A DNA stretch of 64,000 bases from a phage, in the sequence record NC_101837.1. One strand, given 5' to 3'. The notes below the pieces were generated by a model. That model did not search any database and was not told the DNA's origin. It was given only the letters and a program-made list of their open reading frames with translations. The first letter of the stretch is position 1; each line of letters opens with the position of its first letter. Position numbers and translations under genes: made by a program. Positions 15,339-42,084 of the stretch are shown here, piece by piece.

Positions 15339-15455
15339 ATGTCATCAGGCATTTATAAAATTTGCAAGTGTGGTTGTCGTTGCAATCTTCGTTGGTGCAA
15401 GGCACTGGACGATTTTATTTGGCATTGCCCTGAATGTGATACGGAGTATCTATGA
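15339..15455 (+). CDS. 38-aa Cys-rich zinc-ribbon micro-protein (not in ORF track)
   Basis: Strong RBS AAGGAGGT 7 nt upstream of ATG; CKCGCRC...CPEC; stop overlaps nrdG start (ATGA). Confidence 0.45.
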   Translation: MSSGIYKICKCGCRCNLRWCKALDDFIWHCPECDTEYL

Positions 15456-15925
15456 ACATTGTCGGATACACAGAAGTATCTTACACAGAAGGGCCAGGTA
15501 TTAGAACTGCCTTGTGGGTATCTGGGTGCCCACACGCTTGCCCTGGTTGCTTTAATCAGGCATTTTGGTCAAAAGATAAGGGGAGGGAGTTCACTGAAGA
15601 AGATTTGCAAAAAATCTTGTCAGATCTGGATAACCCGTCTGTGTGCGGTATCTCTCTGCTGGGTGGAGAACCCTTAGCATACTATAATGAGCCAGGTATT
15701 ATTAGCCTGATGGAGAAAATTAAGGAAAAATTTGGTGACAAGAAAACTATTCTTGTATATACTGGGTTCACATTTGACCATATCTCTAGTGATGTTCTTA
15801 AACTGGCTGATATCATCATTGACGGTAAGTATGTAAAAGATTTACCAACCAAGAAACCGTTCCGAGGCAGTGATAACCAAAGAATGTTTAAAAAAGTATC
15901 AGGCGGTTGGGTTCAGGTAGACTAG
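15452..15925 (+). CDS. nrdG: anaerobic RNR activating enzyme (radical SAM)
   Basis: CPHACPGC radical-SAM cysteine cluster near N-terminus, 157 aa, adjacent to nrdD. Confidence 0.85.
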   Translation: MNIVGYTEVSYTEGPGIRTALWVSGCPHACPGCFNQAFWSKDKGREFTEEDLQKILSDLDNPSVCGISLLGGEPLAYYNEPGIISLMEKIKEKFGDKKTILVYTGFTFDHISSDVLKLADIIIDGKYVKDLPTKKPFRGSDNQRMFKKVSGGWVQVD

Positions 15926-15928
15926 TTG

Positions 15929-15958
15929 TTGACAAAGCTTTGTTTAGATAGGTATAAT
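15929..15958 (+). promoter_or_regulatory. sigma70-like promoter
   Basis: TTGACA-18 nt-TATAAT. Confidence 0.55.
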
Positions 15959-15989
15959 TATCGTAAAATGAAAGCAGAGGAGGTGCCAA

Positions 15990-16103
15990 ATGGCTAAAAA
16001 AGCCTTGAAGAAGGCGTACAAGAAAGAGATTGCGCTTGAGCTTAAGAAAAAACACAAGCGTGAAAAGAAACATCATGAAGATGAAGAGGGGGTGCAACAG
16101 TGA
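15990..16103 (+). CDS. 37-aa lysine-rich micro-protein (not in ORF track)
   Basis: ATG after GAGGAGGTG RBS; MAKKALKKAYKKEIALELKKKHKREKKHHEDEEGVQQ. Confidence 0.4.
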   Translation: MAKKALKKAYKKEIALELKKKHKREKKHHEDEEGVQQ

Positions 16104-16450
16104 CACAAGAACGTATCGATTTGGCTAATAAGTTTGTAGACCTCATTTTGCCACGGTTAGTTACTCAACATGCAGATGCTATTTCTACTAATCTTGATGG
16201 CTTACGCCTAATGCTGAATCGCACAGATGACCCTCGTATTCGGGCTGATTTAGAAGCCTCTGCCAACAAACTGGAAAAGTTCTTGCAAGTAGACACGCAA
16301 GAAGCCTTGCACAAGATTATGGTGGAAGGTTTCTCTAAAGAATTTACCATTAAAGAGCTTAAGGAGCTGATCCACCAAGAAGAGATGAATATCCGAGTTC
16401 AGGCTGTTGCAAGCAGCATGGAAGCGGCTATTGAAAAACTGTTGCAGTAA
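16100..16450 (+). CDS. hypothetical protein
   Basis: 116 aa, GTG start 8 nt after GAGGGGG. Confidence 0.45.
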   Translation: MTQERIDLANKFVDLILPRLVTQHADAISTNLDGLRLMLNRTDDPRIRADLEASANKLEKFLQVDTQEALHKIMVEGFSKEFTIKELKELIHQEEMNIRVQAVASSMEAAIEKLLQ

Positions 16451-16488
16451 AAGTACTTGGCACATCTCAATCTGAAAGGAGTCCCAAC

Positions 16489-17277
16489 ATGGGTCGAGCT
16501 AAAGAAACAAAACGCATGCGTGATGAAGCTAGAGAGGCTCGCAAATCTGATCGCCTGCGTAAGGCTGCTGAGAAATTTGCTGACGAAAGAGAGCACACCG
16601 CTCCAGCTCTCCGACCAATGAATAAGAAGCAGCAAAAGTATCTTGATTATCTAGGGTCACGTAAGATTATTATTGTAAACGGCGTGTTTGGATCCGGTAA
16701 GACATTTATGGCATCTGCATATGCAGGTGATCTTCTGCGTAAGAACGAGATTGATAAGATCATTGTTGCACGTCCTTACGTCCAGACAGGAAAGACTTCA
16801 GGATTTAAACCCGGAAATGCAATGCAGAAACTGTGGCCCTATCTTCGAAGCATGATGGACACGATTTGTCGTCGTGTTGGCAAAGGTGCTTTTGCCGCAA
16901 TGCTGGGAGACGGTCAGAACAGTCGTATCGAGATTTGTGAAGTTGAAAGCATTCGTGGTCGTAGTTTCGATGAGCGATGCTTTGTCCTGATTGACGAGGC
17001 ACAGCAAACTAACCCTGAAGAAATGTTGTCAATTATCACAAGGATCTCTGATCAAGCCACCCTTGTAATTATGGGTGATAATAGCCAACGTGACATCCCT
17101 GGTAAATCTGGCCTTGCATGGGTGACGGATTTCTTTACTCGTCATCCAGATCCTGAGGTTGGAATGATCAGCTTTGATAGTCCAGACGATGTCGTTCGTT
17201 CCGGGTTGGGTCGTCAAATCGCACTCAATCTTATTGAGGATCGTGCAAATCATATTTGGACCCCTGTTTCCGAGTAA
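16489..17277 (+). CDS. phoH: PhoH-like ATPase
   Basis: Walker A GVFGSGKTFMA, Walker B-like VLIDEAQ, PhoH-like overall layout. Confidence 0.8.
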   Translation: MGRAKETKRMRDEAREARKSDRLRKAAEKFADEREHTAPALRPMNKKQQKYLDYLGSRKIIIVNGVFGSGKTFMASAYAGDLLRKNEIDKIIVARPYVQTGKTSGFKPGNAMQKLWPYLRSMMDTICRRVGKGAFAAMLGDGQNSRIEICEVESIRGRSFDERCFVLIDEAQQTNPEEMLSIITRISDQATLVIMGDNSQRDIPGKSGLAWVTDFFTRHPDPEVGMISFDSPDDVVRSGLGRQIALNLIEDRANHIWTPVSE

Positions 17278-17321
17278 TACAGAAGGGTGGTTATTCCACC
17301 CTTAAATATCTAAAACAGTTG

Positions 17322-17350
17322 TTGACAAACAGGTAAGCTTTAGATATTAT
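17322..17350 (+). promoter_or_regulatory. sigma70-like promoter
   Basis: TTGACA-17 nt-TATTAT, preceded by GGGTGG-ttatt-CCACCC hairpin. Confidence 0.55.
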
Positions 17351-17380
17351 TATCGGACAAGACAAGGAGAAGGAGATAGT

Positions 17381-17692
17381 ATGGCTACAATACAAGAGAG
17401 ACTGAATAAAATATACTGCCTGTTTGTCTATAACGGCGAGACAATTTTGGCAAATAAAGGATCCAAGAATGTGTGGATCAAGGACAGCGGTGGTAATATA
17501 ATCAACTTAGCGTTGCTACGTGAGCGCCGACACAGATTCTTTATCGAGTCTCGAATTATTGAAAGCAGCACTTGCTACAGAACAGGCGATAAAGTAATTG
17601 TTGACAATGATACGTGGTATGTGGTAGATTGGCAATCATTGAGTTGTGATGCTTCTGACAATCGTAAGTACTCCATAGTGATTGCTAAATAA
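17381..17692 (+). CDS. hypothetical protein
   Basis: 103 aa ORF with AAGGAGA RBS downstream of promoter. Confidence 0.45.
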   Translation: MATIQERLNKIYCLFVYNGETILANKGSKNVWIKDSGGNIINLALLRERRHRFFIESRIIESSTCYRTGDKVIVDNDTWYVVDWQSLSCDASDNRKYSIVIAK

Positions 17693-17752
17693 AGGTAAAT
17701 GTGAATCAGGTTTAAATAAATAGCTTTCAACTTCCAATATTAAGGATTTCTC

Positions 17753-18802
17753 ATGAATTTAACACCTCGCAGCACCATGGTACACGGCATGAAAGAAAAA
17801 CAGAACGGTTTCGAACCTATGAGTAATAAAATGTTTGGTATGCCGGGCGGTATCATGGAAACATACAGCTACCCAACACCTGTTGTTGACCACGTTCTTT
17901 ATATCGACGATTTGGAGGACCTGCAGGATCATATGTCTCGTCTGCAGACGATCCGTATGGCTCAGCCGGAAGAAAGCATTCGTGTGATCATCAATAGCCC
18001 TGGTGGTTGCGTGCACATTGCAATGGCCTATCTGCAGGCATTCCGCGAGTCTCAGGCAAGCGTTGTTGCACATGCTGAAGGGATGTGCTGCTCTGCTGGA
18101 ACAATCTTATGGCTTGGTTGCAAAGAACGTACTGTGGCTCCGGACACAGAATTTATGTTCCACTACTATCAAGGTGGCACTTATGGTAACGGTGTTAACA
18201 TGAATACTCAGGTCAGCTACTGGAAAAAACGTTTTGAACACCTGATCGAAAAATACTACGGTGGGGTGCTGACAGAAGATGAGATCGCATCCATCACAGC
18301 TGGTGGCGAAGTGTGGTTGGACGGAGAAGAGTTGGCAGCACGCACTGGAGCTATTATTCTGGATGAAGGCAACATACAACGCATCCAGAACGGACAAAAA
18401 CCGAAAAAGCTTCTGGCAAAAGGTGATGAAGAAGGCGTGTTAGGTGAAGCAGGTCTTCCGGAGATTCATCAGTGCACATCTTTAGATGAGTTAGTTCATG
18501 CTGTTGAATCTGCAAAAGCGGGTGGTTCGAAAGGTGATGTTCACACTGTGTTCCTGAATCTGCAGATGGAAAGTGGCGAGACCGTCCGAATTGCCCTGGG
18601 TGAGATTACTTCAGAAGATCTGCAGAGATTCTCTGTCGTTGAACTTCAGGATATTCTGTCTCAATTGAAGACTACTCTGAACGGCGGTGAAGAGGTTAAG
18701 GTGAAAGATAAGACTCGCAAGCGTCTTGTGGACAATATTATTAAAACAGCAAAAGAGCTCAATGAAAAAATCCTTGGTGCAGGAATTGTCGAAGAAGCTT
18801 AA
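17753..18802 (+). CDS. ClpP-family serine peptidase with ~150 aa C-terminal extension
   Basis: ClpP-like Ser (GMCCSAGTILW) and His (MFHYYQGG) motifs; acidic/coiled C-terminal tail. Confidence 0.6.
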   Translation: MNLTPRSTMVHGMKEKQNGFEPMSNKMFGMPGGIMETYSYPTPVVDHVLYIDDLEDLQDHMSRLQTIRMAQPEESIRVIINSPGGCVHIAMAYLQAFRESQASVVAHAEGMCCSAGTILWLGCKERTVAPDTEFMFHYYQGGTYGNGVNMNTQVSYWKKRFEHLIEKYYGGVLTEDEIASITAGGEVWLDGEELAARTGAIILDEGNIQRIQNGQKPKKLLAKGDEEGVLGEAGLPEIHQCTSLDELVHAVESAKAGGSKGDVHTVFLNLQMESGETVRIALGEITSEDLQRFSVVELQDILSQLKTTLNGGEEVKVKDKTRKRLVDNIIKTAKELNEKILGAGIVEEA

Positions 18803-18813
18803 ACATTAATTCT

Positions 18814-18838
18814 AAAGCCCTCTTCGGAGGGCTTTTAT
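18814..18838 (+). terminator. intrinsic terminator
   Basis: AAGCCCTC-ttcg-GAGGGCTT hairpin followed by TTT. Confidence 0.7.
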
Positions 18839-18853
18839 GATCTGGAGATTTGC

Positions 18854-19387
18854 ATGACTTGTGCTAGAAAACCTGATGAACAACGTAACGCCTACGATGA
18901 GTATGTGACACCGGAATGGTGTGCAGAAGGGCTGTATGACCTTATTCCGTTCCCAGAAGACTGGACCTACTTAGAGCCTTGCAGGAATAGTGCCTCAGGT
19001 GTGTTCTACTCCCGTATGCCGTTAGGATCTGCATGGGGAGAAATCCAAGAAGGTGTTGACTATCTGAATACAGAATACAACCATGTTGACTGTATTATCA
19101 CCAACCCGCCGTACAGCCTGGCTCGTGAGTTTGTGAACAAGGCGTTGAAAGATGCCGACGTAGTTATTATGCTTTTGCGTCTTAATTTTCTGGAAAGCAA
19201 AGCCAGATTTGAATGGTGGCTTGATAATGCACCTACTACTGTGATCACAATATCTAAGCGTCCATCATTTCAATCAAACGGCAGAACTGACGGGCAAGCA
19301 TATGCATATTTTGTGTGGGATAAGAAAAACCGTTTAGACTTGCCGCCGTTTATGTGGTTGGCACCCCCAGAGGTAGACCTGAAATGA
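18854..19387 (+). CDS. small DNA N6-adenine methyltransferase (phage Dam-like, gamma-class)
   Basis: EYVTPEW, YLEPCRNSASGVF (motif I), ITNPPYS (motif IV); 177 aa. Confidence 0.6.
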   Translation: MTCARKPDEQRNAYDEYVTPEWCAEGLYDLIPFPEDWTYLEPCRNSASGVFYSRMPLGSAWGEIQEGVDYLNTEYNHVDCIITNPPYSLAREFVNKALKDADVVIMLLRLNFLESKARFEWWLDNAPTTVITISKRPSFQSNGRTDGQAYAYFVWDKKNRLDLPPFMWLAPPEVDLK

Positions 19388-19668
19388 AAATGAGTGCTAA
19401 GGACAAATTACACCAGCTAGCGCTAAAACGCCCTGTAACGCTCCCTGACGAGCTTAACTCCATTTATGATGCGATTGTAGGGGAGATACAAAATAAAGCG
19501 TTAGCAGGCTTTCTGGGGTGCGGATTTTCGATAAATCTACCCTCGCATCTCTCAGATTACTTCCCGCACATTGTTGGAGATTTAAGGGCAGGAGGTCTGC
19601 AGGTAGATGTTGTTGGCATCTCCCCAGAGAAAAATAATACGGTTGCCTACTTGACAGTAACCTGGTAG
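19384..19668 (+). CDS. hypothetical protein
   Basis: ATG overlapping upstream stop; 94 aa. Confidence 0.4.
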   Translation: MKMSAKDKLHQLALKRPVTLPDELNSIYDAIVGEIQNKALAGFLGCGFSINLPSHLSDYFPHIVGDLRAGGLQVDVVGISPEKNNTVAYLTVTW

Positions 19669-19704
19669 TTGTGTATTGTTGTTTTCAACAAGAGGGGGTC
19701 ATTT

Positions 19705-19944
19705 ATGTACAAGTCATTTTCAATCTACTCAAGACAGGCGAAACACTACACAGAGATCCTGATCACTCAGAAAAAATCTGTGGAAGGTGAGTGGGAATAT
19801 CACCATAAAATGTTGCGTCCAGACTGGGTTTTTGATAGACTTATTGCTATGATCCCTCTCGGAGAAGTATACCCTCTGACAGCCCATCGCGATGCTTGGG
19901 ATTTAATTGATTACATAGATTCATTTAAGGAGCCTAGATTATGA
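19705..19944 (+). CDS. hypothetical protein
   Basis: ATG after AGAGGGGG RBS. Confidence 0.35.
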   Translation: MYKSFSIYSRQAKHYTEILITQKKSVEGEWEYHHKMLRPDWVFDRLIAMIPLGEVYPLTAHRDAWDLIDYIDSFKEPRL

Positions 19945-20339
19945 AGATTGAGATTACTAAAGAAGGTAAGAAAGTGTCCGGCAACTATGCAACAGTAATT
20001 CGGGATTTAATGTTTGAAGCCACCAAGATCGGTACATCTAAAGTTGGTCAAACTGTTAGTGTGAAAAGTAATATCTCCACAGGAGAGAAGGTATTCATTG
20101 TGGTCAAAGGGCAGGATCCCGTGGAAGGAACAGTGGGCCGAGGTGGCTACCTGTGCATTTCTGAAGAGCCGCGTATGTTAGTGGCTGACGCTACTATGGG
20201 TGGGAAACGTGTGTGCGAGGCGGATGAGGTAATGATTATCCAACCTGTTGATCCAGATGACCCAGCAACTTGGGTGGTAGGAAATGAAATCTTCTCTTTA
20301 GAAGAGTTATCCTTCCCAGCACCGCGCTCTGTTCAGTAA
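19941..20339 (+). CDS. hypothetical protein (possible distant member of small acidic paralog family A)
   Basis: MKIEITKEG N-terminus, VKGQD core, acidic C-terminal region. Confidence 0.45.
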   Translation: MKIEITKEGKKVSGNYATVIRDLMFEATKIGTSKVGQTVSVKSNISTGEKVFIVVKGQDPVEGTVGRGGYLCISEEPRMLVADATMGGKRVCEADEVMIIQPVDPDDPATWVVGNEIFSLEELSFPAPRSVQ

Positions 20340-20376
20340 TAATTTATCTTACCAGGGACGGTAGGTAGGAGGTAGC

Positions 20377-20610
20377 ATGAAAGTTAAATTTCTTACAGAT
20401 TTAGGGTACCCTTCCTTGGTTGACTGTGTTGGTAAAATTGTGGAAGCAAAACGGCTATCTGCAAACGAGAATGTTGTCCTGGTTAAAGGGAAGGATTTAC
20501 TAGCTGCAGGTGCAGAGTCTGGCAGGATCTCTCCTGATTATATGTATTACCTATCTTTAAGTAATCTGCCAGAGCGAGGCGGTAAAGGCCTTGAAGTTGT
20601 GGAGGAGTGA
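20377..20610 (+). CDS. small acidic protein, paralog family A
   Basis: MKVKFL..., VLVKGKDLLAAGA, C-terminal EVVEE. Confidence 0.5.
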   Translation: MKVKFLTDLGYPSLVDCVGKIVEAKRLSANENVVLVKGKDLLAAGAESGRISPDYMYYLSLSNLPERGGKGLEVVEE

Positions 20611-21140
20611 CAGGTATGCTTCTGATTAACTGGGAAGACCTCTATGGGGACAAAGACCCTGTTGCGTTTGTTGATCGTAGGTGGAGATACACTGAAGAAC
20701 AACTGGCGGCAAAAAATCTAACTGCAAAACGCAGAAAGATCATCCAGTGCAAGTACAAATACGCACAGTTTGCTGCAAAAGTGTCTCCACAAATCGAGAG
20801 CTTTGTGCTTAAATTGTATGACGAGTACCTCAAATCCAAATTGGATTTTGTGCAGGTGTACCGTGCACAGGTACGACCAGATACCAACATGTGTAGATGG
20901 AAGGTTGTTTGTGAAGGTAAAGATTTGCCGCTCAGCTTGACAATTGAGTGGCGTTATGGGTATCATGAGTGTGGTCTGTATGATATTTGGGATGTCATTG
21001 TAGATCCTGCTAAGCATCTGAACACAGAGGAGCTGGAATATATCAATAAGGTTATTCTCGATATGTTTTTCAGCTACACACATGAAAACTCTGAGAAAGA
21101 ACGGGATAATTTTCTTGACACCCTCAGCGACCATTTGTAG
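20607..21140 (+). CDS. hypothetical protein
   Basis: 177 aa ORF. Confidence 0.45.
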   Translation: MTGMLLINWEDLYGDKDPVAFVDRRWRYTEEQLAAKNLTAKRRKIIQCKYKYAQFAAKVSPQIESFVLKLYDEYLKSKLDFVQVYRAQVRPDTNMCRWKVVCEGKDLPLSLTIEWRYGYHECGLYDIWDVIVDPAKHLNTEELEYINKVILDMFFSYTHENSEKERDNFLDTLSDHL

Positions 21141-21170
21141 TATACAATTTAACCTACAAAGGGAGGACCA

Positions 21171-21398
21171 ATGAGTATAAATGTTGTGCTAATAGGTTAC
21201 CTGGTAATGTCCGTTATAACAGCGGTATTCTTGACAGGTGTATGCATCGTGTCCAGACGAAGGGTGAAGTTTGATGATTTTATCACCATCATCACTGCTG
21301 CACCTTTTTGGCCTGTTGTTATCTTCATCGTAATAATGTGCCTAGTTGATTACTACAAGAATATCAGGAAGGAGAGTAGGGATGGAGACCGCACCTAA
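21171..21398 (+). CDS. small membrane protein
   Basis: Two hydrophobic segments, GGAGG RBS. Confidence 0.45.
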   Translation: MSINVVLIGYLVMSVITAVFLTGVCIVSRRRVKFDDFITIITAAPFWPVVIFIVIMCLVDYYKNIRKESRDGDRT

Positions 21399-21617
21399 AA
21401 CTATCTATACTGTTCTTAAAGAGATTGCGTTCTACGCAGATCTTAGCCAGGCACCTTTATGGGAAAAGAGCATGTATTTAAAATGGTGCGTTAATTTAGG
21501 GAGACCTTCCAGTGTTTCAAGCCATGTTTATTGAGATGCTATCTGGGATATTGTTACTGGTAGCCATCTTAGGTGGTGCAGTTCTGATGTATAACTATCT
21601 TGAAAAAGGAGACAGCA

Positions 21618-21803
21618 ATGGTAAAAAATAAATCTTTAGAGCAGGCTGAAAACCTTCTCCACGAGCTGGTAAAGGAGTGGAAAGTTGAATACTCAGATTT
21701 TAATGCACGAGAGGGTGAAGATTATTGGCCTACGGAGCGCTCAGAGGGCGAATGGTATCAAGATTTTATAGAGTGGTTATATCAGACGTGCGATGAGGGG
21801 TGA
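21618..21803 (+). CDS. hypothetical small acidic protein
   Basis: ATG after AAAGGAGA RBS (MVKNKSLEQ...). Confidence 0.4.
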   Translation: MVKNKSLEQAENLLHELVKEWKVEYSDFNAREGEDYWPTERSEGEWYQDFIEWLYQTCDEG

Positions 21804-22270
21804 CGATGTTTGTTAAATATGTAAAAACGTGCCTCAACAGTCTTGGCAGAGAGCATTGGTACACCTTGCTTGAAAAAGGGGAAATTTTAACAAAATCTGG
21901 AAAGATAACTTTGATACCTCTTGATAGTAAAGGTAAAGACCCGTCACGACTTGTTATAGATGATTACGTTACAGGTGTGACGTTCGAGGTCTCTGTGGAG
22001 AGGTTAATACGCAGAGCTGGCGGCCCTTATGACCGAAGAGAGTATGTTTTCGATTCCGTTACAGAGATGGGGGAGCATCCGTCTTTAATGTTCAGGATGG
22101 TAATCAGAGATATGAGGTCATCTATAGATAGGATCGTAAAGGACATTAAGGAACCTTTTAGAGTAAAAGTTAAGAAGTTTTTCGATTCTAAGATTAACAT
22201 ACTCGCCGTTGCACTAGGTGTAGTTCAACTTCTGTTAATTTTGCACTATTTTGAACTACTATTTAAGTAG
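21800..22270 (+). CDS. hypothetical protein with C-terminal transmembrane anchor
   Basis: C-terminal ILAVALGVVQLLLILHYF hydrophobic helix. Confidence 0.45.
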   Translation: MTMFVKYVKTCLNSLGREHWYTLLEKGEILTKSGKITLIPLDSKGKDPSRLVIDDYVTGVTFEVSVERLIRRAGGPYDRREYVFDSVTEMGEHPSLMFRMVIRDMRSSIDRIVKDIKEPFRVKVKKFFDSKINILAVALGVVQLLLILHYFELLFK

Positions 22271-22332
22271 TAGTTGAGATATGGCACAAAGGATGTGCCA
22301 TAGTGAAATAAACTAAGAAAGAGGTAGAGAGA

Positions 22333-22680
22333 ATGCCAAAGATTAAAACGTTATTACTGTGGGTAGCTGTTTTAGCTTTTATAGGGTACTGGACTTGGGA
22401 AACTGAATTAAAAGATATCGGATATACCAGTCTTGAGAGCAAGGCGTGCATTGGCATAACCGATGCGTTCAGGCAAAATGCTATGGATCATGAATGTGTT
22501 GATGCAGATATAGATGAGAAACTGTCTAAGGACAAAGATTTTTACCATGGGCATGCTTTACTTGATAGTGGTGACACTGTAGAGTTCTGGTCGTGGTTTC
22601 GTGAAGATGGAACAATAAAAACAGCAGTAAAGATCTCTAACAAAGAGTTAATGCTGTTGCAGCAAAAGGAGGCTCAATGA
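22333..22680 (+). CDS. hypothetical protein with N-terminal signal-anchor
   Basis: N-terminal LLLWVAVLAFIGYW hydrophobic segment. Confidence 0.45.
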   Translation: MPKIKTLLLWVAVLAFIGYWTWETELKDIGYTSLESKACIGITDAFRQNAMDHECVDADIDEKLSKDKDFYHGHALLDSGDTVEFWSWFREDGTIKTAVKISNKELMLLQQKEAQ

Positions 22681-22964
22681 TCTGGATATCCTATGCTGAT
22701 GGTACCATGCTGTATACTGCAGGTACCAGATATGAAGTTCAGGAGAACGATAAAAAATTTATCGTAAAAACATTTGACAAGGACGACAACCTTTTGCTAG
22801 AATTGACTTACAAAGTTGGAGAGGTATCCAATATCCAGTTGGATTGTGGTCATAAAGATAATCCACTCAAAAAACCTGGAGTAGGTAAGGCTTCAGAAGA
22901 ACGTCTGTCTCGTATTGCAGAAAGCGTTTCTCCCCAAAAATCTAAGAAGAGGACTAGAAAATGA
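22677..22964 (+). CDS. hypothetical protein
   Basis: 95 aa, translationally coupled. Confidence 0.45.
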   Translation: MIWISYADGTMLYTAGTRYEVQENDKKFIVKTFDKDDNLLLELTYKVGEVSNIQLDCGHKDNPLKKPGVGKASEERLSRIAESVSPQKSKKRTRK

Positions 22965-23155
22965 AAAACTTACGTTTTAACACTTATTACTACAACACAT
23001 TGAATGATTTGTATTATATTGTTCGAAGTAAAAGTCCTGAAACAGTCCTATTCTGCCGCGAACCTTTCAAAGGGGAGGAAGTAGAGTCTGAGATGAATGT
23101 TAGCCAGATCACCTCTTTGTTGCTCTCAGGCGCAATGGAAGAAGCAATATTCTAA
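22961..23155 (+). CDS. hypothetical small protein
   Basis: 64 aa, coupled start. Confidence 0.4.
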   Translation: MKNLRFNTYYYNTLNDLYYIVRSKSPETVLFCREPFKGEEVESEMNVSQITSLLLSGAMEEAIF

Positions 23156-23173
23156 ACCAGGCAGGAGGGTTTT

Positions 23174-23362
23174 ATGAAGCACTATTGCCTGTCTGGTAGA
23201 ATGGGTGCAGATTGTGATTGGGTTTTCTTAAAACTTGTCAGCATTCGAGAGTTCATCCCAGAGGAAGAGCAAGAAAGCGAGCTGATGTCATGGATCAACC
23301 ATTACGGTAACACTTTTCGGCATGTTAAGGTAGAAGAGTTGCCAAGCGAGGCTGAATTATGA
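23174..23362 (+). CDS. hypothetical small protein
   Basis: 62 aa, GGAGGG RBS. Confidence 0.4.
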   Translation: MKHYCLSGRMGADCDWVFLKLVSIREFIPEEEQESELMSWINHYGNTFRHVKVEELPSEAEL

Positions 23363-23655
23363 AACTTTTTGAGTGGTTTAAAAAGTTTAAATATAAAGCT
23401 GTAGCCATCGTGCCGTGGTCCATTCAGTGGGTTGATGAAGGTGGTCTACCGATACCTGGTGACAAAGATACTGGGTACTGGATTATGATGGAGAACGGGT
23501 TTGGAAAGCGAAAGTATACGTGCACAAACTCTACTCGATCTGCACTTAATAGAGTGCCTGGTTACAAACTTATGGTTGTGTGGAAAATGTCAGGCGTGCC
23601 TCCAGCCAATGCTCAATTTCTTACTGACAATCCGACCACGGTAGAGGGAGATTGA
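23359..23655 (+). CDS. hypothetical protein
   Basis: 98 aa, coupled start. Confidence 0.45.
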   Translation: MKLFEWFKKFKYKAVAIVPWSIQWVDEGGLPIPGDKDTGYWIMMENGFGKRKYTCTNSTRSALNRVPGYKLMVVWKMSGVPPANAQFLTDNPTTVEGD

Positions 23656-23657
23656 TA

Positions 23658-23939
23658 ATGAAAAAGATTAACAGTAGTGAAGTAGAGTTTAAACTTGTCG
23701 GAAAAGGCACTTACTGGGAAGTTCGTCAAAAGGTATATTTGTTCGGTCTTATTCCCTACTGGTCTAAATTCTACTGGGGAGCTAACGAGTTGGGAAGATA
23801 CGCCACCAAATCAATGGCACTTATTGGTATAGCAGAGTACATTGCAGCCCGAGACAGGGTTGGAACCACTTATTACTACACTGCTGACGATATTCGTAAC
23901 AGTGTTTACGTCCCACAACCACCTGATGGAGACCGTTGA
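23658..23939 (+). CDS. hypothetical protein
   Basis: ATG after GGAGGGAG RBS (ORF-track start 23652 is TTG). Confidence 0.45.
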   Translation: MKKINSSEVEFKLVGKGTYWEVRQKVYLFGLIPYWSKFYWGANELGRYATKSMALIGIAEYIAARDRVGTTYYYTADDIRNSVYVPQPPDGDR

Positions 23940-24407: not shown

Positions 24408-24419
24408 TGGGTAACCGTT

Positions 24420-25535: not shown

Positions 25536-25637
25536 ATGGGTGTGATCAAGAAATTAGTCCCAAATGTAGAGATTGCATGCTTTGAAATTATGTTTGCAAT
25601 CGCAGTTGTAGTTAATGTGTTAGGTTACGGCTATTAA
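25536..25637 (+). CDS. 33-aa hydrophobic micro-protein (not in ORF track)
   Basis: ATG after GAGGTG RBS; one predicted TM helix. Confidence 0.3.
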   Translation: MGVIKKLVPNVEIACFEIMFAIAVVVNVLGYGY

Positions 25638-28037: not shown

Positions 28038-28324
28038 TGAAAGATCTGGTTAAGATTAAGATTAAAGATACCAATGGAGAACTCAGCCATTTTGGAATTA
28101 ATGATGGTGACGAGCTGATCGCACACCTGCCTACCAAGGAAGTTGTAAGCAAAGCAGTTGCCGGAGAAGAAGATGCAATGCAGGCTGCAGGTGTGGATGA
28201 AAACTATGTAGCTATGTGCATGTGCCGAGATCAGGTTGTTCTGTATAAAGCGTATCGACCAAACGGAGCCACGGAGTGGCTTGTATTCCGACCAGAAGGA
28301 TATGAAATCTTAGAGGCACTATGA
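28037..28324 (+). CDS. small acidic protein, paralog family A
   Basis: MKDLVKIKIK..., C-terminal GYEILEAL. Confidence 0.5.
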   Translation: MKDLVKIKIKDTNGELSHFGINDGDELIAHLPTKEVVSKAVAGEEDAMQAAGVDENYVAMCMCRDQVVLYKAYRPNGATEWLVFRPEGYEILEAL

Positions 28325-28413
28325 TAAATCTTGCCAAGGTTGCAACGGCACTATTAATTATTTGCTGGTCAGTAACCTTAACACTGTGTCTTGTATTTCA
28401 GTAAGGTGCTTAT

Positions 28414-28705: not shown

Positions 28706-28843
28706 ATGACTGATTTTACTGAAGCTTTAATGATGGCCTTGTCTGTTTTAGCGCTATCGGTGTGTTTTGGGGCGTTATTCACATCTCTGGTTAAAGTTTT
28801 ACATACAGTATTATTACCCAAGGAGCGCAGTAATGACGAAGAT
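28706..28843 (+). CDS. 45-aa hydrophobic micro-protein (not in ORF track)
   Basis: ATG after AAGAGGTGAGG RBS; TM helix ALMMALSVLALSVCFGALF. Confidence 0.3.
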
Positions 28844-29084
28844 TGACTTAAATGCTGGAGACCATGTTGTTGTCAAATGCATCGGAGATTATCTTGGATT
28901 CACAATCGGCAATACTTACGAGGCGGTAGTGGCGAAGGTTTACCATGATAAAGTCCTCAGTCTTGTATTTGACTGCGATGATGATGGGGATGACCGATAC
29001 GTCTGTGAGGTGCTGGCACGAGACGATAGTGAAGACCAGAAATTCCTGGTTATTGAACTGAACGGTATTTTTGTAGAACGTTAA
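28833..29084 (+). CDS. hypothetical acidic protein
   Basis: ATG after AAGGAG RBS (ORF-track 28767 start unlikely). Confidence 0.45.
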   Translation: MTKIDLNAGDHVVVKCIGDYLGFTIGNTYEAVVAKVYHDKVLSLVFDCDDDGDDRYVCEVLARDDSEDQKFLVIELNGIFVER

Positions 29085-30350: not shown

Positions 30351-30468
30351 CCACACATCGTTTGGAGAATATGGGATACACAATGAGAACATTGTCTGAA
30401 GTTTTAGTGGTGATCCTGATGATTATTACGTCCATAGCGGCTGTTGCCGGAATACTCACAGGTGGAAC

Positions 30469-30681
30469 ATGATCAACACACATGCATCTGAAGAGACATC
30501 CAAAGGAGTGACCATATGTCCATTGGCTGAGCCAGTGAAAGGGGAAAACTTCGATTCTGAAGATTCTCCATCTTCGCTCCAGGTAGATCCTGAGGCTGAT
30601 GACTTGACGTGGGGAGACATCGTAGATATCTGGTTCTCTATTATGCCTGAGCACGAAGAGTTCAGAGGTGGTAGACTATGA
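30469..30681 (+). CDS. hypothetical acidic protein
   Basis: 70 aa, AGGTGG RBS. Confidence 0.4.
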   Translation: MINTHASEETSKGVTICPLAEPVKGENFDSEDSPSSLQVDPEADDLTWGDIVDIWFSIMPEHEEFRGGRL

Positions 30682-32798: not shown

Positions 32799-32821
32799 AT
32801 ATTATGTCGCGACTCCGTCGC

Positions 32822-32841
32822 GCCATGCCATTCGTTTGCAT
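32822..32841. repeat. 20-bp direct repeat, copy 2
   Basis: Identical to 32550-32569; followed by a further ATAGTTGCC copy. Confidence 0.7.
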
Positions 32842-33502
32842 AGTTGCCTTATTGTTACAGATAAAATAATTGTATTGTTAATTATTTCTTATCTTTCTAT
32901 TAGTCATCTAATGATTCCAGTTAGTATAGTAACGTACAGTAAACATTAGACGACTAAAGATTTCTCTGATTATGATAACTTGCCGTGACAATTTCAGACT
33001 GTTTACGAAAAATGTTGACACCTGAGCTGATTTATGTTATGCAATTTAAACGAATAATTATTTTATGCAGGTATTGACTATTCTGTTATCCTATGGTCGG
33101 AATAAATACTTAGCAGGCTATAGAATGGTGAGCGTACGTAAATTCTGAGATCTGTCGGCTATAGTTATACTCGATTTTTCACGTAGAACACGCTTTTTGG
33201 TTTGTGTAAGTGTATGACTTATAAAGATTTTTAGTTGTTGACAAGATATTGAAGATGTGCATCAGGTTAAATTTTGTGCAATAGCTGCATTACGTGCAAT
33301 TTTGGAAGGAAAACGGGTAAAAATAGCACCGCTACCACACAATGAAAGGTTATGCAATAGTTATTTTACATGTATATTTGTACAGTGTGTGGGATTGATG
33401 GCTCGTCAATTATTCCACTTGCCAGGTAGGGCCGTTTATGGTAGGGAGGAAGAGCAGACAAAAAGAAAGGGACCTAAGCCCCTTGATAATTCAGTTAAAA
33501 AA

Positions 33503-35081: not shown

Positions 35082-35216
35082 TTAAAACAAGGTGCCAACC
35101 GTTTCCAATAGATCACTGACTACCAGGACAATACCGATCAGCACATACCTAACCATAAGGAGAAAGAGCGCCAGCGATCCCGCCACAATCCCCAAGGTGA
35201 TGATTATCTTTCTCAT
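35082..35216 (-). CDS. 44-aa hydrophobic micro-protein (not in ORF track)
   Basis: MRKIIITLGIVAGSLALFLLMVRYVLIGIVLVV; start 2 nt after upstream stop. Confidence 0.4.
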   Translation of the reverse strand: MRKIIITLGIVAGSLALFLLMVRYVLIGIVLVVSDLLETVGTLF

Positions 35217-35218
35217 GG

Positions 35219-35503
35219 TTAACGGTTTACGTAAGTTTTCCCGTTTACGGTGATGGGCAGATCCTCCAGGTCTGGATCTTCCTTAAGGTCGCGAGCAAGT
35301 TCACCGCACCGGACACCCTCGAATCCGTAGTACTCTGTCGTGCCGTCCTTAAAAGTTTTAGCGGCAAGGCATAAGCGATAAGTAACCCCGATTCGATTGA
35401 CGGCATGAATATCCGTTAGATTAACCTCTTTTGCCAGCTCTTTAGCCATTACAGGCGCATTAAGTCCAACAACCAGGGCAACCACTGCGATCATCTTTTT
35501 CAT
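35219..35503 (-). CDS. small secreted/periplasmic protein
   Basis: N-terminal signal peptide MKKMIAVVALVVGLNAPVMA-KE, AGAGGA RBS. Confidence 0.5.
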   Translation of the reverse strand: MKKMIAVVALVVGLNAPVMAKELAKEVNLTDIHAVNRIGVTYRLCLAAKTFKDGTTEYYGFEGVRCGELARDLKEDPDLEDLPITVNGKTYVNR

Positions 35504-35819: not shown

Positions 35820-35924
35820 TCACCCGATACCGTTGGAAGACAAGATCACATTAGCCATGGTTGCAATCAGGCCAATACCCAGGGCAATAACCAGGATCAC
35901 CGCATCAATTAATTTCTGTTTCAT
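35820..35924 (-). CDS. 34-aa hydrophobic micro-protein (not in ORF track)
   Basis: MKQKLIDAVILVIALGIGLIATMANVIL...; GAGGAAAAC RBS. Confidence 0.4.
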   Translation of the reverse strand: MKQKLIDAVILVIALGIGLIATMANVILSSNGIG

Positions 35925-38006: not shown

Positions 38007-38146
38007 TTTGTTTCTCCTTTTGGAACTTTGTCTATGCGGTGGGGAGTGTCTCCCCGTTGATTGTTATTATCCATATTCTGGATCGGATTGCAACACTCAG
38101 GGAGAAAAAAATTTGAAAAGTTAGGCCCCAGGGATCGGGGCCGTTA

Positions 38147-38266
38147 TCAATTACTTACAGCGATAAAATACATCCCTACGCCTAACAATATTTCAAGGGC
38201 GATGATCTCAAGCCATACCATAACACGGCGCGCCTTATCGGTGCGGGGCTTATCCTTGGGTGTCAT
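38147..38266 (-). CDS. 39-aa hydrophobic micro-protein (tentative, not in ORF track)
   Basis: MTPKDKPRTDKARRVMVWLEIIALEILLGVGMYFIAVSN; AGGAGG upstream. Confidence 0.3.
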   Translation of the reverse strand: MTPKDKPRTDKARRVMVWLEIIALEILLGVGMYFIAVSN

Positions 38267-40560: not shown

Positions 40561-40585
40561 AAAAAGCCCCGCACAATGGCGGGGC
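40561..40585 (-). terminator. intrinsic terminator (minus strand)
   Basis: Minus strand GCCCCGC-cattgt-GCGGGGC followed by TTTTT. Confidence 0.65.
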
Positions 40586-40593
40586 GTTGGTTG

Positions 40594-40815
40594 TTATTTG
40601 CCTTTGTGGCGGTATCGTTCCGCCTGTCGTTCACGTTCCAAAAGCAGGCCCGGTAATTTGCGATCATAATGATTCCGCCAGATCTTCCCAAATCTTTTTG
40701 GCTTATTCAGTTTATTGTTGCGCTGGCGGCGTTCCGGCAGCTCTTCGGAAGCATGAGATCGCTTTACAATTTTCTCGAAATTAATTTTCATATATTCCCC
40801 CCTTGCTAACTTCAA
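40594..40815 (-). CDS. hypothetical basic protein
   Basis: 73 aa, Arg/Lys-rich. Confidence 0.45.
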   Translation of the reverse strand: MKLARGEYMKINFEKIVKRSHASEELPERRQRNNKLNKPKRFGKIWRNHYDRKLPGLLLERERQAERYRHKGK

Positions 40816-41134
40816 TATTGGCCTGAATAGCCCGGATACGGCGCTTTATAACTTCCTGATCTGTGTGGTCGTATCCCCAAAAGTCTACAATTTTTGCGCC
40901 CCCCGCCTCCAGGCGGTATAGTGTTTCCTGCATTTTGTAAGCCGGGATCGGTCGCGGTGTTACTTGGTCACCTTCTTTATTTTTATACTTTATAATATAA
41001 TCTTCGTTATCGTTGAATGCCCAAAATGGATATTCTGCAAGGGCGGTACTTCCTCTTTCCTTTTTATCCTGGATCTTATTTACAATTAAAGCCGTAGCAA
41101 TAGCGCCAATAATAAAACTTGCCCCGCTGATCAT
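40781..41134 (-). CDS. membrane-anchored protein
   Basis: N-terminal TM SGASFIIGAIATALIV. Confidence 0.5.
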   Translation of the reverse strand: MISGASFIIGAIATALIVNKIQDKKERGSTALAEYPFWAFNDNEDYIIKYKNKEGDQVTPRPIPAYKMQETLYRLEAGGAKIVDFWGYDHTDQEVIKRRIRAIQANIEVSKGGIYEN

Positions 41135-41208
41135 GTACTTTCTCCTTTCATGGTGTTAATAAATTATCTTTATAGATGGCCCTGCAACCAGGACCACCGA
41201 AAAAATAA

Positions 41209-41454
41209 CTATTTCACAATGCCTACAAAACAGATCCCGCCTTCACCTATATAAGCAATATCGGTCACTTTATAACTTGTCAAGATCTGCTTATTTAGTT
41301 CATTAATAAAATCGGTCATTGCGTTGGTGTAGTTGTCTTCCGTGTCTAAGGCATAATCCCAGGTGTACACCTTTTTACGTCCGAAGCCTTTTACCATGAT
41401 ACGGGCGCTTTTGGTGTTGGTAGGGGCATAATATTTGGTGATTAGTGCTGCCAT
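41209..41454 (-). CDS. hypothetical small protein
   Basis: 81 aa, TAGGAG RBS. Confidence 0.5.
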   Translation of the reverse strand: MAALITKYYAPTNTKSARIMVKGFGRKKVYTWDYALDTEDNYTNAMTDFINELNKQILTSYKVTDIAYIGEGGICFVGIVK

Positions 41455-41500
41455 GGTTTTAACTCCTATGCATTAGTTCAGTGTTAACAGTATAAAGTTT

Positions 41501-41545
41501 ACTTTATTGATGGCCCTGGTGTCAAGGCCATCTAAAAATAAGCTT
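41501..41545. repeat. conserved ~45-nt hairpin element, copy 2 (abuts stop codon of 41544-41885)
   Basis: GTTTACTTTATTGATGGCCCTGGTGTCAAGGCCATCTAAAAATAA. Confidence 0.7.
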
Positions 41546-41885
41546 ACTCGTTTTCTTCCAGCTCCGCAAGCTCTTCTTTTGCTTCTTCTAACTCTGTCTG
41601 TAATTCCTGGTATTCTTCATCGTCCTCAATATCCAGGCTGTCGATGTAGTCGCTAAATCCGCAGCGGTAAGCGATAGGATCTAGCTCCTTGAGGATACGC
41701 GACGGAAGAAAAGAAATGTTTCCGATCATAATTTCGCCGTAGATCTCGTCTAACCATTCATCATAGTTTTCGTCGTACTTGTCCTCGTCGATTTCAAAGT
41801 TATCGATCTTATTCTCAAGGTCTGCGATCTGTTTTTTCAGTTCAGCGATCTGCATAGCTTTTTCTGAGGCGGTCATAGTAGTCAT
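41544..41885 (-). CDS. hypothetical acidic coiled-coil protein
   Basis: 113 aa, Glu-rich. Confidence 0.5.
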   Translation of the reverse strand: MTTMTASEKAMQIAELKKQIADLENKIDNFEIDEDKYDENYDEWLDEIYGEIMIGNISFLPSRILKELDPIAYRCGFSDYIDSLDIEDDEEYQELQTELEEAKEELAELEENE

Positions 41886-41937
41886 GGTGTTTTTCTCCTT
41901 TTGTGTGTTCTGGGAAGTTTTCCCGTTTATGTGCTTA

Positions 41938-41965
41938 TTATATCGATTTAAGTTAGCTTGTCAAT
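41938..41965 (-). promoter_or_regulatory. sigma70-like promoter (minus strand)
   Basis: Minus strand TTGACA-16 nt-TATAAT. Confidence 0.5.
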
Positions 41966-42084
41966 TAAAAGTTTAAGAAAAATTTTGCGACACCGTTGGC
42001 GCTACCCATCAACATTTGCGCCAGGATGTACCCAATGATGCAAACGATGATGGTTACCTTTGTGTGCTGGCGTGTAGTGCTCAT
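41965..42084 (-). CDS. 39-aa hydrophobic micro-protein (not in ORF track)
   Basis: MSTTRQHTKVTIIVCIIGYILAQMLMGSANGV...; GGAAAAGGAGGC RBS. Confidence 0.4.
   Translation of the reverse strand: MSTTRQHTKVTIIVCIIGYILAQMLMGSANGVAKFFLNF

Follow-up and report, generated by a model that had tools for sequence, protein, structure and literature searches.

The nine micro-ORFs analyzed here (m1 to m9, Table 1) belong to an ordinary, already known class, and are mostly bona fide small genes. At least seven of them show the evolutionary signature of protein-coding genes (m1, m2, m4, m6, m7 and m8, with m5 weaker). They are known small genes of rV5-like phages, probably encoding accessory micro-proteins for host interaction, which would be made from early-type transcripts of the host RNA polymerase.

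Genome setting and annotation

The window, the whole stretch of 64,000 nucleotides analyzed (NC_101837.1), is an rV5-like myovirus (Vequintavirus) genome of the E. coli phage kind, and shares 97-99.9% DNA identity with CM1, rV5_ev147, Murica and Bas51. All nine micro-ORFs reside in two convergent blocks of small genes, in which sigma70-type promoters are numerous (52 sigma70-like promoters vs. 34.5 expected, and 63 vs. 35.2). The top-scoring ones are all in sense orientation. A promoter, P118, is annotated at the position of the m2 promoter in the rV5 record, a terminator at the hairpin following m7 in the Murica record. A cluster of iteron-like motifs was also noted in the window.

All nine frames proposed in an earlier note were confirmed, each with an ATG start and a stop codon. 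Eight ends had been placed correctly; the frame given as 28706-28843 lacks its stop codon, the true end being 28846. Five of the nine (m5 to m9) lie on the minus strand. The good Shine-Dalgarno (SD) sequences attributed to the set are clear, 5-10 nt upstream, in eight members (AAGGAGGTG, GAGGAGGTG, GAGGTG, GAGGTGAGGA, GAGGA, GGGGGAG, AAGGAGG, GAGGAGGT), m5 having none. Packing is tight as described, the m1 stop overlapping the nrdG start (ATGA) and m2 the next gene by 4 nt.

That these genes had been missed because of a 60-aa cutoff is true solely of the ORF table used for the earlier note, as public records already carry all nine. Eight are CDSs, as hypothetical proteins, in the original rV5 record DQ832317 of 2006 (counterparts cited are ORFs 118, 145, 156, 170, 173, 181 and 193), and nine in the BASEL or CM1 records (CM1_00109/111/138/148; bas51_0105/0109/0119/0125/0128); bas54 genes are annotated counterparts too. 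All match PHROG v4 families, eight over the full length with high significance, m9 partially; these families are sequence clusters without tested function. Searches of Pfam, PDB and folds gave no significant match for any of the nine.

Table 1. Micro-ORFs and associated signals in the window; w is dN/dS, and Tn-seq classes based on 6-12 TA sites are noisy
Feature	Position	Strand	Description	Family, counterparts	w (p)	Bas54 ortholog, class, TA sites hit
m1	15339..15455	+	38 aa, Cys-rich, 7 Cys + His, CxCxCxC...C...HCPEC; SD AAGGAGGTG	phrog_20137	0.14 (3e-5)	bas54_0177, 'Intermediate', 6/9
sigma70 promoter	15929..15958	+	TTGACA-18-TATAAT, consensus 12/12, immediately 5' of m2			
m2	15990..16103	+	37 aa, Lys-rich, acidic tail	phrog_7670; rV5 ORF118	0.07 (6.5e-7)	bas54_0175, unclassified, 2 TA sites
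50-aa ORF	21382..21534	+	soluble; intact 11/11	phrog_16157; rV5 ORF130	0.13	
39-aa ORF	21512..21631	+	TM peptide, GTG start; intact 10/11	phrog_15251; CM1_00124, rV5 ORF131	0.09	
m3	25536..25637	+	33 aa, hydrophobic, between HPF-like gene and 89-aa gene; SD GAGGTG	phrog_15151; rV5 ORF145	0.58 (0.33)	bas54_0154, non-essential, 10/10
27-aa ORF	28321..28404	+	TM, MINLAKVATALLIICWSVTLTLCLVFQ; fills 90-nt gap, ATGA overlap on upstream stop; intact 16/16		0.34 (0.017)	
m4	28706..28846	+	46 aa, acidic N-terminus, charged C-tail; overlaps next gene by 14 nt; intact 16/16 (start ATG or GTG)	phrog_16755; rV5 ORF156	0.24 (0.004)	bas54_0144, 'Intermediate', 9/12
33-aa ORF	30371..30472	+	TM peptide; intact 12/12	phrog_34195; bas51_0137	0.12	
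m5	35082..35216	-	44 aa, very hydrophobic; no SD	phrog_16005	0.62 (0.07)	bas54_0128, non-essential, 8/9
m6	35820..35924	-	34 aa, predicted N-in single TM	phrog_14631	0.42 (0.0017)	bas54_0125 (54% identical), 'Reduced fitness', 7/9
Hairpin	38124..38142	-	terminator-like, GC-rich, GGCCCCGATCCCTGGGGCC, 7 pairs, 6 GC; directly 3' of m7 stop			
m7	38147..38266	-	39 aa, basic N-terminus, TM segment with two Glu	phrog_13629; 118 records	0.23 (0.002)	bas54_0117, non-essential, 11/11
sigma70-like promoter	41964-41937		strong, downstream of m8			
m8	41965..42084	-	39 aa, predicted N-in single TM	phrog_16391; rV5 ORF193	0.16 (1.3e-6)	bas54_0107, non-essential, 6/6
sigma70-like promoter	42146-42117		strong, upstream of m8			
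m9	43385..43525	-	46 aa, hydrophilic, shortened allele	phrog_21957 (partial)		bas54_0103 (58 aa), 'Intermediate', 12/14

Coding signal, dispensability and alternative readings

Under strict criteria (ATG, SD match of at least 5 nt, location in gaps between ORFs of at least 60 aa) nine ORFs were counted in sense and none in antisense orientation in the same gaps. Among 11-16 related genomes, pooling gives a dN/dS of 0.31 for the frames as proposed and of 0.75 and 1.42 for the two alternatives (binomial P = 2e-18), in counts which take codon variants as independent, ignore phylogeny and recombination, and span a region of patchy diversity. Start, SD and stop are kept, and indels are in-frame, in relatives diverging by up to 55% at the protein level. 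Conservation and dN/dS, the checks suggested in the earlier note, are individually significant for m1, m2, m4, m6, m7 and m8, weaker for m5; m3 has no signal of selection. No transcriptome, Ribo-seq or small-protein mass spectrometry data for rV5 were found in the literature.

The sole experimental dataset found is HIDEN-SEQ (preprint), a Tn-seq analysis of phage Bas54 on E. coli K-12. Sequence-verified orthologs of the micro-ORFs are dispensable under these laboratory conditions, four being non-essential, three intermediate, one of reduced fitness, one unclassified and none essential, in classes which at 6-12 TA sites are noisy and may include polar effects. Dispensability fits accessory roles, and would suit equally the membrane depolarisation, superinfection exclusion and inhibition of host or defence proteins earlier envisaged for the hydrophobic peptides.

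It is very unlikely that the set consists of chance open frames or non-coding spacers, called by pipelines merely because they are open. Single members do lend themselves to this reading. The start of m3 is changed to ATA in two of 16 genomes, D# (where a new ATG occurs at codon 3) and S127 BCL3 (where none replaces it), and the gene sits in a low-diversity patch, so that the selection test has no power and retention of the ORF is trivial; m3 is perhaps not translated at all. The m9 family is intact in nine of 12 relatives, the exceptions being rV5 (a truncated form) and CM1 and Murica (a disrupted one); m5, weakly constrained, is missing in three genomes, and annotators disagree on m1, skipped in Murica and rV5_ev147 and replaced by a different frame in rV5. 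Against chance stand the sense-only occurrence of the ORFs, the low pooled w (about 1 in alternative frames), the six individually significant genes, the conserved translation signals and in-frame indels, and the persistence of m1 and m2 in phages with a NrdG only 55% identical.

Some of the ORFs might alternatively be leaders or coupling devices serving a downstream gene (m1 for nrdG, m2 for a 116-aa gene, m5 after a 94-aa gene), the peptide itself being irrelevant. The 4-nt ATGA-type overlaps of m1 and m2 with the next genes, the 2-nt spacing at m5, the promoter-proximal location of m2 behind a perfect sigma70 promoter and the low insertion counts in the gene downstream of its Bas54 ortholog are in line with coupling. 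Yet what is conserved is the amino acid sequence (w of 0.07 for m2, 0.14 for m1) and not mere openness: all seven m1 Cys are unchanged throughout, divergent phages in which m2 identity has dropped to 30-40% still have its motif, and m1 is intact in rV5 and L032 though another gene separates it from nrdG. Such a role is unlikely. A function of the hydrophobic peptides in lysis or killing is also quite unlikely, be it as holin/antiholin partners or as depolarising pores of the type I toxin kind, with m7 in a holin cassette. BASEL records name a 123-aa protein with two TM segments, encoded upstream of m7, 'putative holin', and in size and hydrophobicity the peptides are similar to toxins of the Hok/TisB type and to small holin partners. 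However, neither Pfam nor PHROG identifies the 123-aa protein as a holin, in Bas54 its counterpart is non-essential (27 of 28 TA sites hit), as is that of m7, the essential spanins are located at the terminase operon, and the peptides reside in early-type units with sigma70 promoters, not in a late lysis cassette. Accessory micro-proteins of host interaction remain the preferred reading.

Features of the single micro-proteins

The protein encoded by m1 is Cys-rich, as earlier noted, has zinc-knuckle motifs and is intact in all relatives. The gene was found in 121 Vequintavirus records, and the order nrdD, m1, nrdG is shared by about 120 genomes as well as two divergent contigs. Variants of 41 and 54 aa with a CxxC knuckle directly follow nrdD in divergent contigs of about 133-140 kb. 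Identity in divergent phages is 82-87% for the m1 core, 82% for NrdD and 55% for NrdG, and by this comparison m1 appears as conserved as NrdD, and more than NrdG. The m1 family does not extend beyond this phage lineage, and other NrdDG systems, e.g. L011, do without it. The nrdD gene contains a group I intron. The label 'ribonucleotide reductase' given to phrog_20137 derives from neighbouring genes and transferred annotation, and is not evidence. A metal-knuckle micro-protein (zinc-ribbon or rubredoxin-like), with a function linked to the genes of the anaerobic ribonucleotide reductase, may be envisaged. The orthologs of nrdD and nrdG are non-essential, that of m1 intermediate, unlike what a pure NrdDG helper would predict.

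The Lys-rich composition claimed for m2 was found. The gene is the first cistron of a unit including the 116-aa gene and PhoH, with 12 synonymous and four non-synonymous changes among relatives. In L019 and L032 the position of m2 is taken by counterparts of 41 aa that feature the motif AYxKE[IF]xLE[LI]K[KR]. The protein may form a basic, amphipathic helix followed by an acidic tail, and bind either an acidic macromolecule, such as nucleic acid or the ribosome, or a partner encoded downstream.

Each of m3 to m8 has one TM-like segment by hydropathy, as had been proposed, and N-termini are basic, acidic in m4. The six are most likely, judging from composition and gene context, N-in single-pass membrane peptides of sigma70-driven early operons. 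In the inner membrane they would adopt an N-in/C-out orientation, as helices of a tail-anchored-like kind. Rather than depolarising the membrane in bulk, they would bind, helix to helix, a partner located there; candidates are a transporter, receptor or defence sensor of the host and a membrane protein that the phage itself encodes. The start of m5 lies 2 nt past the stop codon of the gene for a 94-aa protein with a signal peptide (35219-35503), which is suggestive of coupling. The w of m5 is barely lower than in the alternative frames (0.80 and 0.90), identity is 45-68% vs. about 95% in the flanks, and the gene is missing, with flanks intact, from Murica, MiataMamis and A147 (three of 16 genomes). 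Homologs were found in Vequintavirus alone, with DUF7396 below threshold. Such fast divergence and presence/absence polymorphism would be typical of arms-race genes. An alternative 46-aa start of m6 at 35960 is not conserved, being broken in six of 12 relatives. The m7 gene ends a three-gene unit, following those of the 123-aa protein and a 73-aa soluble protein. Fourteen of 15 genomes share an identical TM core (residues 18-39), while the N-terminus varies, also by an in-frame indel; the 123-aa protein is a candidate partner.

The m9 allele differs by two in-frame deletions from a family of 56-58 aa proteins, its length being unique to the window, and the soluble protein encoded may be dispensable or in decay. 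The same span holds at least four further conserved micro-ORFs, absent from the earlier note (Table 1). The 27-aa ORF (w of 0.66 and 0.97 in alternative frames) is found at full length in 117 records; it has no PHROG family, and no CDS occupies the gap in 10 annotated records inspected. It is apparently unannotated in public records.

Comparison with known small proteins

The best matches of m1 are zinc-binding modules, none significant (E 0.18-9). With zinc-finger, ribbon and rubredoxin proteins (PDB 8q5b; LysW, 3wwl) m1 and its variants share knuckles of the CxxCG-like and CPxC types, spaced by about 18 residues, and the AF2 model predicts short beta-hairpins. In contrast to these proteins, the first knuckle of m1 in the window is CxC and not CxxC, and three Cys and the His are extra; metal binding is putative. 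YfaE, an 84-aa 2Fe-2S ferredoxin encoded with E. coli nrdAB, maintains the cofactor of class Ia ribonucleotide reductase. Being likewise small, Cys-rich and fixed in a reductase operon, m1 may be a functional analog; YfaE however serves class Ia and is unrelated in sequence, and a role of m1 with class III NrdD/NrdG is hypothetical.

T4 Imm and Sp, T5 Llp and phi80/T1 Cor are small single-pass phage membrane proteins (60-100 aa, some lipoproteins) with demonstrated phenotypes, blocking superinfection or modulating the envelope. The m3 to m8 genes are also accessory, laboratory-dispensable phage genes of early-type units with predicted membrane-anchored products, but these are shorter (33-46 aa), have no sequence similarity to the former and lack a lipobox. 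In bacteria AcrZ, MgtS, MgrB, SgrT, KdpF and CydX are small membrane regulators, acting via helix-helix contact, and Hok, TisB, Ldr and Ibs type I toxins, acting via membrane damage. No homology of m3 to m8 to either group was detected; the likeness is in size (20-50 aa), single TM helix and positive-inside N-terminus. Differently from type I toxins, no antisense RNA partner is evident for m3 to m8, and the TM segment of m7 carries two conserved Glu, unusual for toxins.

Reality and coding signal of the micro-ORFs

The nine micro-ORFs listed in the earlier note, m1 to m9 (Table), are all found in the DNA with an ATG start, five of them on the (-) strand; start and stop positions were correctly placed, save that m4 lacks a stop codon at 28843 and ends at 28846. 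Their packing is tight, as had been claimed: the m1 stop and the nrdG start share an ATGA, and m2 ends in a 4-nt overlap with the next gene. The good Shine-Dalgarno (SD) sequences are obvious in eight ORFs; m5 has none, and starts 2 nt past the stop codon of the upstream gene. A strict screen of the gaps separating ORFs of at least 60 aa (ATG start, SD match over 5 nt or more) yields nine ORFs on the coding strand; the opposite strand of these gaps has none.

Syntenic DNA was collected from 11-16 other genomes, nearly all of which keep start, SD, stop and length of the micro-ORFs; in-frame indels are found in m7 and m9 of divergent relatives. The pooled dN/dS, a count of codon variants that uses neither a tree nor a recombination model, is 0.31 in the proposed frames vs. 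0.75 and 1.42 in the alternative frames (binomial P 2e-18). Purifying selection, with conserved start, SD and stop, marks m1, m2, m4, m6, m7 and m8 (p<0.005); m5 is borderline, and m3 gives no such signal. Disruption in relatives, which the earlier note would have taken as refutation, is met in the m9 family, of which rV5 has a truncated copy and CM1 and Murica have disrupted ones; most other ORFs are kept. The m9 product is hydrophilic, and the allele of the window is uniquely shortened by two in-frame deletions, the family being 56-58 aa long. The nine-ORF observation is thus correct and clearly non-random, and some seven or eight of these ORFs can be regarded as real small genes. No Ribo-seq, proteome or transcriptome of any rV5-like phage was found in the literature searched, and statements reaching past small, conserved, membrane-like or Cys-rich, and accessory are mechanistic inference.

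The 15-30 kb and 30-45 kb segments match by megablast 126 and 239 phage records, respectively, nearly all from the genus Vequintavirus (E. coli rV5-like myoviruses; 93-99.9% identity), and including Shigella phage CM1, rV5_ev147, Murica and BASEL phage Bas51. Nucleotide diversity among Vequintavirus genomes is patchy over 15300-30100 (median 10 variable sites per 100 nt, at least 25 patches with 3 or fewer), a distribution consistent with mosaic recombination, and uniform-rate conservation tests are therefore invalid for short elements. This bears on m3, in which codons 1-8 are hypervariable, codons 9-33 and the next 26 nt almost invariant; third positions vary at 0/25 of these codons vs. 37% in flanking genes. 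The m3 start is changed from ATG to ATA in two genomes: D#, where a new ATG arises at codon 3, and S127 BCL3, where none does. The idea of an RNA or DNA element lying under m3 was considered and dropped, because comparable invariance is common, neither strand folds stably when set against shuffled sequence (z +0.5, +0.2), and Rfam has no match at the patch. About 5% of the 100-nt windows in the 15-30 kb interval are as invariant, in at least 25 scattered patches that include ordinary genes, so that the low diversity of m3 is nothing special. The ORF is not judgeable by substitution patterns, and is the weakest candidate. Next to m3 the phage encodes a homolog of HPF/RaiA-like ribosome hibernation factors and an 89-aa protein, also labelled 'sigma 54 modulation factor' in some records; the Bas54 orthologs of both genes tolerate insertions (10.1101/2025.11.20.689424).

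Annotation and dispensability

The micro-ORFs had been presented as missed by a 60-aa ORF cutoff; they are CDSs in public records already. The 2006 rV5 record DQ832317 has m2 to m8 as ORFs 118, 145, 156, 170, 173, 181 and 193, an annotated ORF in the m9 region, and the m1 stretch covered by an ORF in another frame. Micro-ORFs, m1 included, are annotated in the CM1, Bas51, Bas54, Bas56, Bas58 and MiataMamis records. All nine products match PHROG v4 family HMMs (E 2e-16 to 4e-36), eight over the full length (1-N) of both protein and profile, m9 by residues 16-44 only of a 56-position profile. None has a match in Pfam, or a significant one in PDB or by Foldseek; tblastn places m1 and m7 in some 120 Vequintavirus records and nowhere else, and an Rfam scan of the window returns nothing at the gathering threshold.

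Four ORFs absent from the original list lie in the same span: three further conserved micro-ORFs, and a 27-aa hydrophobic ORF that suits the 'missed' headline more closely than the nine do. This 27-aa ORF occupies a 90-nt intergenic gap, with an ATGA overlap upstream and its stop 9 nt ahead of the next start, is intact in 16/16 genomes and full length in 117 records, and has no PHROG family; of 10 annotated records inspected, none has a CDS in the gap.

Table. Coordinates of the micro-ORFs and of neighbouring features, selection statistics, and Bas54 counterparts with reference-host classes (Extended Data Table 8 of 10.1101/2025.11.20.689424; TA sites hit in brackets), which are noisy for genes with 6-12 TA sites
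Feature	Coordinates	Strand	dN/dS	p	Bas54 counterpart	Class
m1	15339-15455	(+)	0.14	3e-5	bas54_0177	Intermediate (6/9)
m2	15990-16103	(+)	0.07	6.5e-7	bas54_0175	Unclassified (2 TA sites)
m3	25536-25637	(+)	0.58	0.33	bas54_0154	Non-essential (10/10)
m4	28706-28846	(+)	0.24	0.004	bas54_0144	Intermediate (9/12)
m5	35082-35216	(-)	0.62	0.07	bas54_0128	Non-essential (8/9)
m6	35820-35924	(-)	0.42	0.0017	bas54_0125	Reduced fitness (7/9)
m7	38147-38266	(-)	0.23	0.0024	bas54_0117	Non-essential (11/11)
m8	41965-42084	(-)	0.16	1.3e-6	bas54_0107	Non-essential (6/6)
m9	43385-43525	(-)			bas54_0103 (family)	Intermediate (12/14)
Conserved micro-ORF, 50 aa	21382-21534	(+)				
Conserved micro-ORF, 39 aa, TM	21512-21631	(+)				
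Conserved micro-ORF, 33 aa, TM	30371-30472	(+)				
Hydrophobic TM ORF, 27 aa	28321-28404	(+)	0.34	0.017		
nrdD ORFs	11880-12743, 13028-14260					
Insertion in nrdD	12740-12996	(+)				
HNH-type endonuclease gene	14298-15290	(+)				
HPF/RaiA-like gene	25209-25526	(+)				
89-aa gene	25664-25933	(+)				
300-nt gene	~29809-30108	(+)			bas54_0140 (gene order, size)	
ORF-poor zone	~31050-33450					
Motif cluster	32550-32860					
94-aa protein	35219-35503	(-)				
2-TM protein, 123 aa	38486-38857	(-)			bas54_0115	Non-essential (27/28)

Bas54 is a Vequintavirus analyzed by transposon-insertion sequencing (HIDEN-SEQ; bioRxiv preprint 10.1101/2025.11.20.689424). Orthologs of the nine ORFs were verified by sequence (54-100% identity), and none falls in the essential class on the reference host. 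In the comparison of clinical isolates, bas54_0123-0134 are depleted as one block, most strongly at 0132-0134 (10.1101/2025.11.20.689424); the block includes the m5 and m6 orthologs, and such joint depletion resembles an operon or polar effect more than one specific to a peptide. Judged by gene order and size, the 300-nt gene is the putative counterpart of bas54_0140, which is needed to overcome DS-28, a predicted defence system of E. coli CFE311 (10.1101/2025.11.20.689424). In short, the genes already stand in the records as hypothetical proteins, and by experiment a laboratory host can be infected without them.

Discovery value is small, the ORFs having stood in rV5-like phage records as hypothetical genes from 2006 on, and belonging to existing PHROG families. 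The resource is a vetted shortlist of about 8-12 micro-proteins that joins coordinates to selection statistics and to the corresponding Bas54 transposon data. Vequintavirus is a genus in therapeutic use. Metal-knuckle proteins and small membrane peptides of phages are little explored as a class; superinfection exclusion, inhibition of cell division and anti-defence activity have been traced to individual members. Most promising for follow-up are m1, nrdDG-linked and unusually conserved, and m7, with its near-invariant, Glu-containing TM helix; further ones are the fast-diverging, presence-polymorphic m5, and the apparently unannotated 27-aa ORF.

Membrane peptides and their transcription units

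The single-TM character claimed for m3 to m8 is borne out by hydropathy, each having one TM-like segment, at least some 19 residues long and unequally charged on its two flanks (Kyte-Doolittle 19-residue windows 2.08-2.79). The N-flank carries 2-6 K/R in m3 and m5 to m8, and is acidic in m4. With basic N-termini, and C-tails short or absent, m3 and m5 to m8 would insert N-in/C-out as tail-anchored-like helices, and may act via helix-helix contacts.

Matches to sigma70-type promoters are enriched (52 vs. 34.5 expected; 63 vs. 35.2 expected), and the best ones are all sense. A perfect TTGACA-18-TATAAT lies upstream of m2, m8 is flanked by two strong promoters, m5 and m6 reside inside one promoter-to-terminator unit, and a GC-rich hairpin is found directly 3' of m7. 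This layout fits accessory operons read by the host RNAP (early-type).

The TM core of m7 (residues 18-39) contains two Glu and is invariant in 14/15 genomes, the N-terminus being variable. Such a pattern speaks for a specific partner, which may be the 2-TM protein encoded upstream in the same operon. This 2-TM protein is called 'putative holin' in BASEL records. It receives no holin assignment from Pfam or PHROG, its Bas54 ortholog is non-essential, and the Bas54 spanins are essential and located at the terminase operon (10.1101/2025.11.20.689424). Placing m7 in a lysis cassette is therefore unsupported, as is the holin label; the label is probably wrong, or else the 2-TM protein is not the sole holin. 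Used as anchor in IMG/VR, the 2-TM protein retrieves only two loci.

Homologs of m5 are confined to Vequintavirus. The gene is absent from Murica, MiataMamis and A147, where both flanking genes remain, and elsewhere is 45-68% identical vs. about 95% for the flanks; fast divergence and presence/absence polymorphism suggest the pattern of an arms-race gene. Three m5 variants score 13-17.7 bits against Pfam DUF7396, below the gathering threshold of 27 bits, and the window allele has no match. The 94-aa protein directly upstream of m5 features a classical signal peptide (MKKMIAVVALVVGLNAPVMA followed by KE); a small secreted phage protein would then be translationally coupled to the membrane peptide. 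For m6 the 34-aa form of the earlier note is the conserved one; a 46-aa form was discarded, the extension being broken in 6/12 relatives.

The (+) gene block (~1-31 kb) and the (-) gene block (~33.5-64 kb) converge on an ORF-poor, AT-rich zone. Four copies of GGCAACTAT in alternating orientation reside here within 174 nt, the whole window having 6 vs. 0.54 expected. The copies sit within longer inverted repeats, and a perfect 20-nt direct repeat (32550, 32822) flanks them. Rfam has no match in the zone, and the equivalent Bas54 intergenic region of about 2 kb tolerates no transposon insertions (10.1101/2025.11.20.689424). The cluster is a candidate origin or protein-binding array.

The nrdD-nrdG region

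Compared with Murica and rV5_ev147, nrdD is split into two ORFs by a precise 257-nt insertion, which IMG/VR UViG_3300010279 has as well. A match to the Rfam Group I intron model extends from one end to the other (29.3 bits, E=1e-5, under the gathering score of 50), and the insertion is probably an ORF-less group I intron, comparable to the known group I intron of T4 nrdD. Inserted between nrdD and m1 is the gene of a 330-aa homing endonuclease of HNH type (phrog_681/559), which Murica and rV5_ev147 lack; the nrdD-nrdG interval is a mobile-insertion hotspot.

The Lys-rich m2 product does have a net charge of +6. Being promoter-proximal and coupled to the next gene, m2 could be taken for a pure leader ORF; yet 12 synonymous vs. 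4 non-synonymous changes denote conservation of the amino-acid sequence, not of openness alone, which makes that role unlikely. In two divergent contigs (~133-140 kb) a Lys-rich 41-aa gene occupies the position of m2, ahead of PhoH, and an m1 variant directly follows nrdD and precedes nrdG. Identity between the window and one of these contigs, L019, is 82% for NrdD, 82% for the m1 core, 55% for NrdG and 33% for the gene downstream of m2; m1 is hence as constrained as the reductase.

The m1 product had been described as a Cys-rich zinc ribbon overlapping the nrdG start. The seven Cys and the overlap are there; the zinc-ribbon or rubredoxin-like fold hits are not significant. The weak matches are all to zinc-binding modules (best E 2.9 by Foldseek, 0.18 by phmmer against PDB), and the AF2 model, of modest confidence (pLDDT 69), has short hairpins. 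A Pfam search at E up to 10 gives no match for m1 and P0010, and for P0011 a single chance-level one (Cas12f1-like TNB, E 0.36). The knuckle reads CPEC in the window allele, and the 41- and 54-aa variants have CxxCG as first knuckle. Such features make m1 a probable metal-knuckle micro-protein. It is not a detached C-terminal piece of NrdD, which keeps its own Zn-ribbon and glycyl-radical motif. An exhaustive HMMER search finds only the lineage-restricted 41- and 54-aa variants, matches of 1093 and 248 aa being artefacts of summed repeats; nrdG as anchor in IMG/VR retrieves only two loci.

That m1 is a rubredoxin- or zinc-ribbon-like, metal-binding micro-subunit dedicated to the anaerobic ribonucleotide reductase (RNR) system of the phage is possible but rather improbable. 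Such a role would explain why m1 keeps its place between nrdD and nrdG, why in most genomes its translation is coupled to that of nrdG, and why it is conserved like NrdD while NrdG has drifted. Against it, the m1 family is limited to this lineage, one distant nrdDG locus has no m1, another small gene lies between m1 and nrdG in rV5 (237 nt) and in the second divergent contig, L032 (34-aa ORF), and the noisy transposon class of m1 is unlike those of nrdD and nrdG. As a reductase subunit, m1 would bind NrdD, or feed or stabilise the Fe-S cluster of NrdG, a partnership analogous in logic to that of YfaE with the class Ia RNR.
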